Shown here one piece after another: positions 9,888-14,196 of a stretch of 64,000 nt of DNA. The notes beneath the pieces were generated by a model that did not search any database, was not told the DNA's origin, and saw only the letters and a program-made list of their open reading frames with translations. A program made the position numbers and the translations under genes. Where the stretch lies: the NCBI GenBank assembly GCA_019058365.1, contig JAHPZE010000001.1:64001-128000 (forward strand), written 5' to 3'. This DNA comes from Promethearchaeota archaeon. GTDB lineage: Archaea; Asgardarchaeota; Lokiarchaeia; Sigyniarchaeales; SOKP01. Numbering within the stretch: position 1 is the stretch's first letter; every line of letters begins with the position of its first letter.

Positions 9888-10916
9888 CTATAAAAGAAAT
9901 TTTTTCAAAATCTTATCATTTTCTATTTCAATGGTCATTTCTTTTGTTAAATTGTTATAATCAGTTCCATAGATAACTTGACCTTTTAATTGATTAAAAT
10001 CAGAATACCGTAAAGTCAAGGATGCAGCAAATTTTAATGAATTTTTATTATAATCTTCTTGTACAAGTGTAATTGGTCCGGGAACTCCTTTAGCTTCAAA
10101 TATTAAATCACTTGGTTTTTTGAGAGTTAGTAGTTTATTATTTTCGAATTCATTTCTTCCTACTATAATTTTTGTATTTTTATATCGGAAATGACGTCCT
10201 ACTTTTAAAAAATTTATATCTTCAATTTTTGGCTTTTTATGAAATTTGAGATAATCATTCATACGATTTGTAAAATTCTCATCTGTTAGGAGGCATCCTC
10301 CACAAGCATAATAATTATCTAATAATCCATGGGTTCTTGCAATCTCCATTTGGATTTTTCTACCCCTTCCTTTTATTCCTAGTAATAGTTTTCGATCAAT
10401 TAATCCTTGCTCTTCATAAATAGTGGGTTTTAGCTGGAGAGCAGATAAGGGTCTTAAAAGTCTACCTTCCAGACCTGCTTCTTTCTCAACAATCCTTAAC
10501 GCTCTCAAATGTTGGGATTTTGGTCTCTGATTTAGAACTTCTCCAGTGAATATCAAATTGGCTTTTATTCTTTTCATGAATTCTTTTGCTTTCTTTAAAA
10601 TGTAAATTCTACAATCTATACAAGGATTTAAGTGTTTACCATACCCAAATTTAGGATTTCGAATCAATTCTAAAAAATCTTCTCCTAATGGCAAATAATA
10701 TATTTTAATTCCCAGTTTTTCTTTAAATAAATCTAAATTGCATTCTACATTTGTAGATTCTCTATTATATTGACAAAAGGGTGAGATAAAGTTTAAACCA
10801 ATAACATTAATTCCTTGTAATTGCATTATATGACAAGCTATTAAACTATCTAAACCCCCCGATACTAATCCAAGCCCAGTTAATGTCTTACCGATATTGT
10901 ATTTTTCATTGATCAT
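9888..10916 (-). CDS. ThiI/MnmA-like PP-loop tRNA sulfurtransferase (with DUF814-like C-terminus)
   Basis: SGGLDS PP-loop, NPCIDCR, TGEVLNQRPKSQ, GGCLLTD, GRHFR. Confidence 0.85.
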   Translation of the reverse strand: MINEKYNIGKTLTGLGLVSGGLDSLIACHIMQLQGINVIGLNFISPFCQYNRESTNVECNLDLFKEKLGIKIYYLPLGEDFLELIRNPKFGYGKHLNPCIDCRIYILKKAKEFMKRIKANLIFTGEVLNQRPKSQHLRALRIVEKEAGLEGRLLRPLSALQLKPTIYEEQGLIDRKLLLGIKGRGRKIQMEIARTHGLLDNYYACGGCLLTDENFTNRMNDYLKFHKKPKIEDINFLKVGRHFRYKNTKIIVGRNEFENNKLLTLKKPSDLIFEAKGVPGPITLVQEDYNKNSLKFAASLTLRYSDFNQLKGQVIYGTDYNNLTKEMTIEIENDKILKKFLL

Positions 10917-11023: not shown

Positions 11024-11641
11024 TCATTCTCTAATCATTGCCCAATTTATTAAATTACTATCTGGTATTTCATATTTTTCGATTATCTTAAATCCAAATC
11101 GGTTATAAATCGGCAAATTTTTCTCATTATTAGTATCTAAAAAACATGGTAAATTCTGTTTATCAATTTGGTTAAACATGGAATTAAATAATATATTAGA
11201 GTAGCCTTTTCCTTGATTTATTGGATTTATACCTATAATTGATAAATACCAATGAAATGAAGTCATAAGTTTCTTATGCTTTGAATAAATATATTTATAA
11301 AATTGATTTTGTTTCTTGACAGCTTTACTCCCTAGTTTAAAGAAATATGAGATTCCTCCATTTAATAACCCCATTAATGGAGTAATTTTTGATCTATTAG
11401 AAGGGAACCATATAGCTATTCCTTCAAGATTAGGTGATGTTATATGAACTATTCCATATTTCATTCCTAATCGAATTAATAGCTCCATCATTGATGATAA
11501 TTTAAATGATCTCTCTTTTGTTTTTGGAAATAAAAATACCATGAGGGGATCATTAAAAAATGCTTTACTAATAATAGAACTTGCTTGCTTAATTTGATTT
11601 TTAGTTAATAAAGTAAGATCTCTTAATGAAATTCTAATCAT
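11024..11641 (-). CDS. GNAT family N-acetyltransferase
   Basis: HWYLSIIGINPINQGKG, NLPIYNRFGF. Confidence 0.9.
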   Translation of the reverse strand: MIRISLRDLTLLTKNQIKQASSIISKAFFNDPLMVFLFPKTKERSFKLSSMMELLIRLGMKYGIVHITSPNLEGIAIWFPSNRSKITPLMGLLNGGISYFFKLGSKAVKKQNQFYKYIYSKHKKLMTSFHWYLSIIGINPINQGKGYSNILFNSMFNQIDKQNLPCFLDTNNEKNLPIYNRFGFKIIEKYEIPDSNLINWAMIRE

Positions 11642-12130: not shown

Positions 12131-12243
12131 GCCAGTGTATCCGAGTAGTTAAGGAGGCGGCCTATAGAGCTTAAAACTGACTCTAGCCGAAGCAGAGCCG
12201 TTGCTTTTCAGCATCGTGGGTGCGAATCCCACCGCTGGCTCCA
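12131..12243 (+). tRNA. tRNA-Cys(GCA) with 28-nt intron (12164-12191) at position 33/34, long variable arm, encoded CCA
   Basis: Acceptor GCCAGTG/CGCTGGC; U73 then CCA; anticodon stem GCGGC/GCCGT with spliced loop CT-GCA-GA; BHB motif: CGGC/GCCG helix flanked by CTA and AAG bulges, inner helix TAGAG/CTCTA; T arm GTGGG-TGCGAAT-CCCAC. Confidence 0.88.
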
Positions 12244-12474: not shown

Positions 12475-14196
12475 TTAGGTACCGTTCATAATTTTCATGT
12501 TTGGAGTATAATACTCGCCAATTGCATAGTTATTGAAGTTTATACTATAATGGTTTCGCCAATGTGCTTTAACATCTTCTAACATTGCTTCCATAACACT
12601 TTCTTTAACTTTTCCTTCTGCGCATATAGTTTTACCTATTGGAGATGCTACAACCTCTCCATCCTTTACAACAATTTGACCGTCTTTTATTGTATAGGTT
12701 GCTAAAGTAAAAGCTTTTTCTATCGCATGTCCATCTATTTTTTTCGGATCTAAATTATATATCGCAACATCACCAATCGCTCCCCTGCCTAAATGACCTC
12801 TATCTGTCATACCTAAACATTTAGCAGTGCCTGCTCGCGTAATTGTACATATTTCACCTAATGTTAATTCACGATCGATATCTCTTAATTGAGATTTCGT
12901 ATTCGCTTTTGGAGAACATTGATTTAAAAGTATATCATCTCTTGATTTCTTATCCATAAGCCATCGAACAATCTGTGGATAGCTTGTAAATGGTCCACCA
13001 TTGGGGTGATCGGTCGTCATAAATATTTGCCAAGGATTCTTGGTAAGGAGCATAAGCTCTAATCCAACTGCCCATTGTACTGCATTCACAGCAACTTTAG
13101 GATCAAATAAATAAGGAACTATACCGGAACCAGATTCCCCTTCTACTTGACCATTTATCCATTTAATTCCAGGTTTAGAGCCCCAAGCTGAAGTGCCGCC
13201 GATATGATGGAGAGCAAATTCCCAAGGCCCGTCTGCAGTCATTGTTGTAGTTGCAGCTTTCCCAAAAATAATTTGACCCGCATCAACAGTAAGATGTTCA
13301 TGTGAATTTAAATATTCAGCTATATCAGCAGCACCAGATTCGAAATCACCCCAAGTAGTACCTCCATATGCATTAAATTGGCAGTGTGTGAGATGAAAAA
13401 CAGATTTTCTTCCTTGTTTTGGTTTAATTTTATCAACAGTCTTAAAAGTCTCAAGTGTATGCTCTTTATTTCCAGGATGTCCTAAATTGTTAGCATGGAC
13501 ATGGATAGTATGAGGTAACTTTAATATTTCATTTACTTTTGATAAGCTTTCTAAAATTTCTCTAGGTGTTACTTCAAAATGAAAAACATGATCATCCAGA
13601 GAATTAACGTTTTTACCCCAAGCCCAATTTTCGACTCCTCCAGGATTTACTATTTTCACAGCATACCCTTTGACTACCTTTAAAATCCAAGCGATGTAAG
13701 CAGCTAATTTTTCATAATTTTTTTGTTTAACATATTCCATTACAAACCAATTATTTCCGAAAAGTGGAAAAGCAGCTTTATCTATAATAGGTGTAACCAA
13801 AAATTCTTCATGAGTATGTCTTGCTTTAAGCAAAGGCATTGCGGGTTCAACGACAGTAGTATATCCTAACCTAGCATAACGATATCCTGTTGCCCATGTT
13901 GATGGCACTGACCAACCAGTTCCACTTCGAGTCAATTTAGTTCTTTTTTCATTACATTCTTCAAGTTTATCATCAGGTCGAAATGAACGTCCAGCATTCA
14001 CTTTAGTTCCTGCAATATGAGCATGTATGTCTACCCCTCCTGGCATCACAATCATTCCAGAAGCGTCAATTACTTTTGCATCCCCATTAACTTTTTCTAC
14101 GACAATCCCATCTTTAATATGGATATCTTTCTTTTCCCCGTCAATATTATTTAATGGATCGTATATTAACCCGTTTTTAATTATTAAATCCTTCAT
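12475..14196 (-). CDS. fwdA: Formylmethanofuran dehydrogenase subunit A
   Basis: PGGVDIHAHIAG, KIVNPGG, HVHANNLG, TTDHPNGGPF, TRAGTAK. Confidence 0.95.
   Translation of the reverse strand: MKDLIIKNGLIYDPLNNIDGEKKDIHIKDGIVVEKVNGDAKVIDASGMIVMPGGVDIHAHIAGTKVNAGRSFRPDDKLEECNEKRTKLTRSGTGWSVPSTWATGYRYARLGYTTVVEPAMPLLKARHTHEEFLVTPIIDKAAFPLFGNNWFVMEYVKQKNYEKLAAYIAWILKVVKGYAVKIVNPGGVENWAWGKNVNSLDDHVFHFEVTPREILESLSKVNEILKLPHTIHVHANNLGHPGNKEHTLETFKTVDKIKPKQGRKSVFHLTHCQFNAYGGTTWGDFESGAADIAEYLNSHEHLTVDAGQIIFGKAATTTMTADGPWEFALHHIGGTSAWGSKPGIKWINGQVEGESGSGIVPYLFDPKVAVNAVQWAVGLELMLLTKNPWQIFMTTDHPNGGPFTSYPQIVRWLMDKKSRDDILLNQCSPKANTKSQLRDIDRELTLGEICTITRAGTAKCLGMTDRGHLGRGAIGDVAIYNLDPKKIDGHAIEKAFTLATYTIKDGQIVVKDGEVVASPIGKTICAEGKVKESVMEAMLEDVKAHWRNHYSINFNNYAIGEYYTPNMKIMNGT

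Follow-up and report, generated by a model that had tools for sequence, protein, structure and literature searches.

A Lokiarchaeial tRNA-Cys with a long variable arm and an A18-G55 elbow, a conserved structural variant most likely of ordinary function

The window, a 64,000-nt stretch of a Promethearchaeota contig, holds a tRNA-Cys(GCA) gene with a long variable arm, A18 in the D loop and G55 in the T loop. The tRNA is a real and conserved structural variant of tRNA-Cys, and its function is most likely ordinary. Judging from sequence comparisons, it is likely the housekeeping tRNA-Cys of its host, charged directly by an ordinary CysRS that tolerates an optional arm, with A18-G55 as an older substitute at the elbow. 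To our knowledge, archaea have long variable arms only in their Ser, Leu and Sec tRNAs, and they keep G18 and U55 almost without exception; both rules are broken here, in dozens of Asgard genomes, by a tRNA-Cys that is essential and single-copy. The literature searched, with subscription journals mostly outside it, holds no description of a long-armed Asgard tRNA-Cys or of A18-G55. The armed and short alleles that occupy the same locus in relatives are natural pairs, with which one could test how SerRS and LeuRS avoid a newly long-armed tRNA, and how the tRNA-Cys types are shared out between CysRS and SepRS.

The gene and its intron

The gene matches RF00005 over 12131-12240 (cmscan, 41.2 bits, E 1.7e-7). 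In the 64-kb window it was missed by ARAGORN run without introns and by Rfam at the gathering threshold. ARAGORN run genome-wide with introns allowed found 12131-12243 and called it Tyr(ATA), with a splice that is wrong by comparison with intronless orthologs; at a lowered threshold the program returned only noise. Since the gene is missed or miscalled in these ways, the tRNA sets of Asgard archaea are probably mis-annotated.

Among all the bulge-helix-bulge (BHB) motifs enumerated, the best-scoring candidate lies between U33 and G34 (Table 1), and consists of a 3-nt bulge, a 4-bp central helix, a second 3-nt bulge and five inner pairs. Intronless orthologs have the anticodon loop CU-GCA-GA, exactly the loop that this splice creates, which confirms the 33/34 splice. 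EndA would remove the intron from the pre-tRNA. The original prediction of a tRNA-Cys, made from a spliced GCA anticodon and U73, is thus upheld at the place where it was made. The minimum-energy fold of the spliced 85-nt RNA is a 7/5 cloverleaf with a variable arm (-30.8 kcal/mol), and to the features of Table 1 may be added G15-C48 and G30-C40. A contig from a separate study covers the gene with no exon difference listed, and this agreement within the exons excludes an assembly error. A sigma-70 promoter and terminator scan, with a model unsuited to archaea, scored at chance level.

Table 1. Parts of the tRNA-Cys gene, in window positions
Feature	Position	Strand	Details and basis
pre-tRNA-Cys(GCA) gene	12131..12243	+	113 nt; 85 nt spliced; CCA encoded
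Acceptor stem, 5' strand	12131..12137	+	G1-C72, 7 bp; partner 12233-12239
D arm	12140..12155	+	3-bp stem, G13-A22 mismatch, G15; A18 (12147), G19 (12148) replacing GG
Anticodon stem, 5' strand, with C32 U33	12157..12163	+	exon 1 ends here
BHB intron, 28 nt, position 33/34	12164..12191	+	top BHB candidate; missing from intronless orthologs; two EndA subunits in genome
Anticodon G34 C35 A36, G37, A38 and anticodon stem, 3' strand	12192..12201	+	spliced loop; intronless orthologs
Variable arm, 14 nt: 4-bp stem, 4-nt loop, 2 unpaired bases on 3' side	12202..12215	+	covariation in 21 distinct alleles; fold
T arm: 5-bp stem; loop with U54, G55 (12222)	12216..12232	+	T-arm scan, covariation
Acceptor stem, 3' strand, discriminator U73 (12240), CCA	12233..12243	+	read from sequence; fold

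Introns in the tRNA-Cys genes of relatives occupy many sites, including the D stem, the D loop, 33/34, 37/38, 45/46 and the T arm, and the sites vary between close relatives (L383, L380, L378, L084, L180, L191, L210 and others). In the window the gene is flanked by a ThiI-like tRNA sulfurtransferase with an NFACT-R domain (9888-10916), a GNAT-like ORF without a Pfam match (11024-11641) and an FwdA-like amidohydrolase (12475-14196), a neighborhood that recurs across genus g1. Some contigs carry several copies of a tRNA-Cys 3' end (G342:C25, G345:C121, G384:C3), as would be expected of mobile-element integration sites.

Is this the only tRNA-Cys of its genome? The long ORFs contain 13,001 Cys codons and 187 ferredoxin-type motifs (CxxCxxCxxxC), so that the genome needs a tRNA-Cys, and no second one was found in it by Rfam, ARAGORN, T-arm and anticodon-arm scans or blastn with the tRNA-Cys of relatives, a search that addresses the original question of a sole copy. 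The set of tRNA genes recovered is incomplete, at about 33, and a second tRNA-Cys with several introns could have escaped the search. A scan of viral DNA for this tRNA form gave four matches, none of them a tRNA by ARAGORN; both that were inspected were chance matches in GC-rich DNA.

The variable arm

The arm reads TGCT/TTTC/AGCA followed by TC, and in the minimum-energy fold its pairs have probabilities of 0.49-0.77. Further evidence comes from relatives. In 21 distinct alleles the arm is paired in every case (100%), with 11 two-sided changes, and none of 500 shuffles scored as high; relatedness of the alleles may inflate this shuffle control, and slid-stem controls collapse too, their pairing dropping to 11-69%. 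The two-sided changes fall at two of the four arm pairs, one of which occurs as C-G, U-A and G-C, the other as U-A and C-G. By these comparisons the variable arm of Lokiarchaeia tRNA-Cys is a real, conserved hairpin, and the class II-like long arm that had been claimed for this gene is borne out by pairing, compensatory change and fold.

An arm of this form, meaning a variable region of 12-14 nt with a 3-4-bp stem, is present in 55 of 161 Lokiarchaeia genomes, and the armed tRNA-Cys was seen in genera g1, g28, g27 and g21 and in all four genomes of family f4. Most of the records that contain the same arm-bearing gene have Promethearchaeota titles, among them Candidatus Sigynarchaeum springense. 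Several records titled Hermod-, Thor-, Odin- and Hodarchaeota (L101, L115, L127, L130) carry the genus g1 tRNA-Cys, and L115 matches G021 by position; these appear to be genus g1 genomes, and the submitters' labels look unreliable.

In principle the arm could be another intron, whose excision would leave a normal short loop, a possibility raised along with the original prediction. The variable loop of relatives does harbor BHB introns (29 nt at 45/46; G007, L383), and the arm might even be the relic of such an intron that has shrunk. When BHB motifs were enumerated, however, no candidate removed the arm cleanly while keeping the anticodon stem intact. The excised piece would be merely 7-10 nt, the arm stem co-varies internally, its loops are frequently GNRA, and no strand is complementary to positions 40-43. 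Excision of the arm is thus most improbable.

Origin of the arm

It had been suggested that this is a Cys tRNA built on a Leu/Ser-like body. The relatives say otherwise. Short-armed tRNA-Cys from the same genus (L017, L018) and from g28 (L201) are near-identical to the armed form except in the variable region and the T stem, and those short-armed forms have the same 3-bp D stem and G13-A22; the arm was therefore added to a Cys body. Recombination with tRNA-Ser may also be considered as a source of the arm, since both arms start with TGC and their anticodon stems resemble each other, though the likeness covers very few bases.

In other g1 species the same locus, with the ThiI-like and GNAT-like genes on one side and FwdA on the other, is occupied by a related short allele with C18/U55, in genomes that have no SepRS. 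This short allele was seen in the SepRS-less G003, G006, G007, G011, G017, G025, G035, G095 and G099 (for example L020:1502-1593, L377, L382). It represents a third elbow solution, and its locus is that of the armed allele wherever the neighbors were examined. On an EF-2 tree, a quick single-gene tree of a chosen subset of genomes, no fewer than 8 changes are needed to account for the arm, and G099, the nearest sister of this genome in the sample, is short-armed. With short alleles at the same locus and so many changes on the tree, the arm is optional, and its history includes several gains, losses or exchanges. Since g1 and g28 share identical arm sequences, we infer common origin or transfer.

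The elbow

The second departure from the rule seems to have a different history. Within the cysS-linked type of tRNA-Cys, to which the present gene belongs, 78 genomes combine A18 with G55, 9 combine G18 with U55, and no genome combines G18 with G55. All 16 tRNA-Cys from three other Asgard families likewise have A18/G55, with variable loops of 4-5 nt. The original suggestion that the D-loop and T-loop changes compensate for one another is well supported by these counts, and because A18/G55 is found in the short-armed tRNA-Cys of other Asgard families, the elbow swap is older than the arm. On this comparison it predates the arm and is not tied to it. Across Asgard archaea, A18-G55 probably stands in for the G18-U55 elbow contact of tRNA-Cys, by a putative contact of its own. 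G55 cannot be pseudouridylated. In the present genome all other T loops recovered by the T-arm scan have U55. A18/G55 is common in the short-armed tRNA-Cys L333-L351 (families f26, f27 and f31), and the single-contig genomes G044 and G055 have it as well.

Charging of the armed tRNA-Cys

How is such a tRNA charged? The genome encodes a full-length CysRS (512.7 bits against a cut-off of 340) with catalytic, DALR and anticodon-binding domains, the last weakly scored. Canonical CysRS would charge the armed tRNA by way of GCA, U73 and G37, and the charged tRNA would read UGC and UGU. The arm would then be a hairpin added to the CysRS-linked Lokiarchaeial type of tRNA-Cys, optional and tolerated by the enzyme. 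Tolerance has a precedent in CysRS variants able to charge the long-armed tRNA-Cys selC* (PMC5389517). One might ask whether the arm has co-evolved with a special CysRS; this was rejected, as the arm is found with three CysRS clades, and both large f1 clades include short-armed genomes.

An indirect route, with SepRS and SepCysS or with SerRS followed by conversion, had been put forward as one explanation of the arm, and SepRS is indeed known from Asgard archaea (PMC5424206, PMC8762117) and present in 57 of 161 Lokiarchaeia genomes. Here, in a MAG that is 100% complete, neither SepRS nor SepCysS was found, and the presence of CysRS above its cut-off tips the proposed comparison of the two routes in favor of direct charging. 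Furthermore, the studied type of tRNA is linked to cysS, and A47 in a short variable loop, an element of the Sep route, is missing, its region being replaced by the arm. We give indirect charging next to no weight.

A subtler concern is dual identity, in which SerRS also charges the tRNA through its arm, placing some Ser at Cys codons. Candida tRNA-Ser(CAG) and nematode nev-tRNA, the latter charged with Leu, are examples of dual-identity-like tRNAs. SerRS reads the variable arm, which is its main element (PMC7954030), together with G73 and, weakly, G30-C40 (PMC9976931, PMC7954030). The SerRS of the genome is of bacterial type and includes the N-terminal domain for arm binding, the tRNA has both the long arm and G30-C40, and U73 is treated as compatible with Ser identity in allo-tRNAs (PMC5389517). 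Against this, G73 is a strong archaeal SerRS element (PMC9976931) that all three tRNA-Ser found here possess and the tRNA-Cys lacks. The geometry of the arm differs as well: the arms of the genome's own tRNA-Ser have an unpaired U44, 4 bp and 2 unpaired bases, whereas U44 is paired with A or G in all 21 armed Cys alleles. Nor do the proteins betray any substitution. When EF-2, its paralog and CysRS are aligned, arm-bearing genomes have 220 of 234 Cys codons in Cys columns and 6 in Ser columns, against 176 and 6 of 193 in short-armed genomes, so that there is no surplus of Cys codons at Ser positions and the Cys content of the three proteins is unchanged; the abundance of Fe-S motifs tells against serine misincorporation also. 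As far as these alignments reach, they rule out Cys-to-Ser recoding in arm-bearing genomes, but not low-level mistranslation, and no change of the genetic code is indicated. Dual identity is accordingly improbable. U73 and an arm geometry that differs from that of the genome's tRNA-Ser probably hold off both SerRS and LeuRS; the genome's own tRNA-Leu have A73.

Known tRNAs offer several comparisons. With the canonical archaeal tRNA-Cys(GCA)/CysRS system the armed tRNA shares the 7/5 fold, G1-C72, GCA, G37, U73, G15-C48 and an encoded CysRS, and it has near-identical short-armed orthologs in its own genus. It departs from that system in its 12-14-nt variable region with a 3-4-bp stem, as opposed to 4-5 nt, and in A18/G55 as opposed to G18/U55. 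Because it lacks the short loop and G18/U55, the gene is classed as a variant of the CysRS-route tRNA-Cys. It resembles archaeal class II tRNA-Ser and tRNA-Leu in arm size (14-15 nt in the genome's own Ser and Leu tRNAs) and in the 3-bp D stem, but differs in U73 versus G73 or A73, in the GCA anticodon, in the pairing of U44 into the arm and in a body that comes from tRNA-Cys.

The selC* tRNA-Cys of anaerobic bacteria (Mukai et al., PMC5389517) likewise combines a long arm, U73 and GCA (or UCA) with charging by CysRS, which for the present tRNA is our prediction. It differs in that selC* resembles tRNA-Sec, with longer stems (8/4 in some cases), is an additional gene and, in certain species, is accompanied by the partners SelB*/CysRS*, whereas the studied tRNA is 7/5 with a 3-bp D stem and is the sole tRNA-Cys found; it has no 8/4 or 9/3 branch and no RF01852 match at E 0.01. 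Eukaryotic noncanonical V-arm tRNAs (Hamashima et al. 2016, cited by PMC7954030) also place an anticodon other than Ser or Leu on a long-armed tRNA, but they are mostly extra copies, while ours is archaeal and single-copy, with no signal of recoding. Finally, the CysRS and SepRS of Methanosarcina mazei favor isoacceptors of tRNA-Cys that differ in the core (PMC9976931); no long arm is reported there, and the comparable split proposed below is drawn from gene linkage and co-occurrence.

Two tRNA-Cys types and SepRS

Many Lokiarchaeia encode both CysRS and SepRS together with two types of tRNA-Cys, one linked to cysS and the other tracking SepRS. The studied type lies within 2.1 kb of cysS in 44 relatives, and in 33 of these it is directly upstream on the same strand at a distance of 130 nt or less; 23 of the 33 carry the arm. 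The second type has G18/U55, a short loop and a purine at 47. SepRS is present in 37 of the 42 genomes with the second type and in 20 of the 119 without it, counts from which five chance pattern matches (G039, G045, G099, G128, G140) had been removed and which include 11 matches not inspected by eye. A purine occupies position 47 in 13 of 14 second-type tRNA-Cys, as against U47 in 22 of 24 of the short cysS-linked type, and A47 is listed as a SepRS-specific element in a review (PMC9976931). One second-type tRNA-Cys (G053) may combine A18 with U55.

Across the 161 genomes of the class the arm was seen solely on the cysS-linked type, never on the type that tracks SepRS. Since the arm replaces the region of position 47, the tRNA is probably a poor SepRS substrate, and we hypothesize that the arm excludes SepRS. 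If so, it would explain why SepRS-bearing armed genomes keep a second, short tRNA-Cys: G070, G094, G039 and G041, each at least 70% complete, have the arm, an intact SepRS and a second tRNA-Cys that is short-armed where its variable loop is visible. In G045 (63% complete), which has SepRS and the arm, no second tRNA-Cys was found. A SepRS fragment with an internal TAG at a contig end (G101:C13:4-870) is either decaying or interrupted by an intron.

Has the arm then been selected as an anti-determinant, one that actively bars SepRS (or a different class II enzyme) from the tRNA of the CysRS route, or is it a passenger that is tolerated? Its confinement to one type, the four genomes above and the compensatory changes in its stem would all fit. 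Yet 49 of the 55 arm-bearing genomes lack SepRS and so have nothing to exclude, the short cysS-linked tRNA is frequent in SepRS-bearing genomes, and SepRS-less sister species carry a short allele at the same locus. The raw counts of family f1 show a strong association, with SepRS or the second type present in 3 of 51 armed genomes versus 15 of 30 short-armed ones; on the tree, the link between arm and SepRS is not significant (6 independent pairs, median p = 1). An anti-determinant role is therefore unlikely, and we favor an arm that CysRS tolerates. A broader proposal, which we advance tentatively and with considerable doubt, would have the two tRNA-Cys types keep two Cys-encoding routes apart, with the arm as a selected structural switch that reserves the tRNA for CysRS and denies it to SepRS. 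If true, a single genus would hold a natural case of an essential class I tRNA that has repeatedly taken on class II architecture and given it up again.

In the genome studied here, tRNA-Cys and cysS are on different contigs, and the cysS is of a different clade. Most genus g1 species likewise have a CysRS of a separate clade that is unlinked to tRNA-Cys (L031, G000:C37; tree), and both CysRS clades occur in G015, a hint that one replaced the other by transfer. Upstream of cysS, the gene at L031:2994-4382 resembles the C-terminal half of IleRS, so that the IleRS frame seems to be interrupted.
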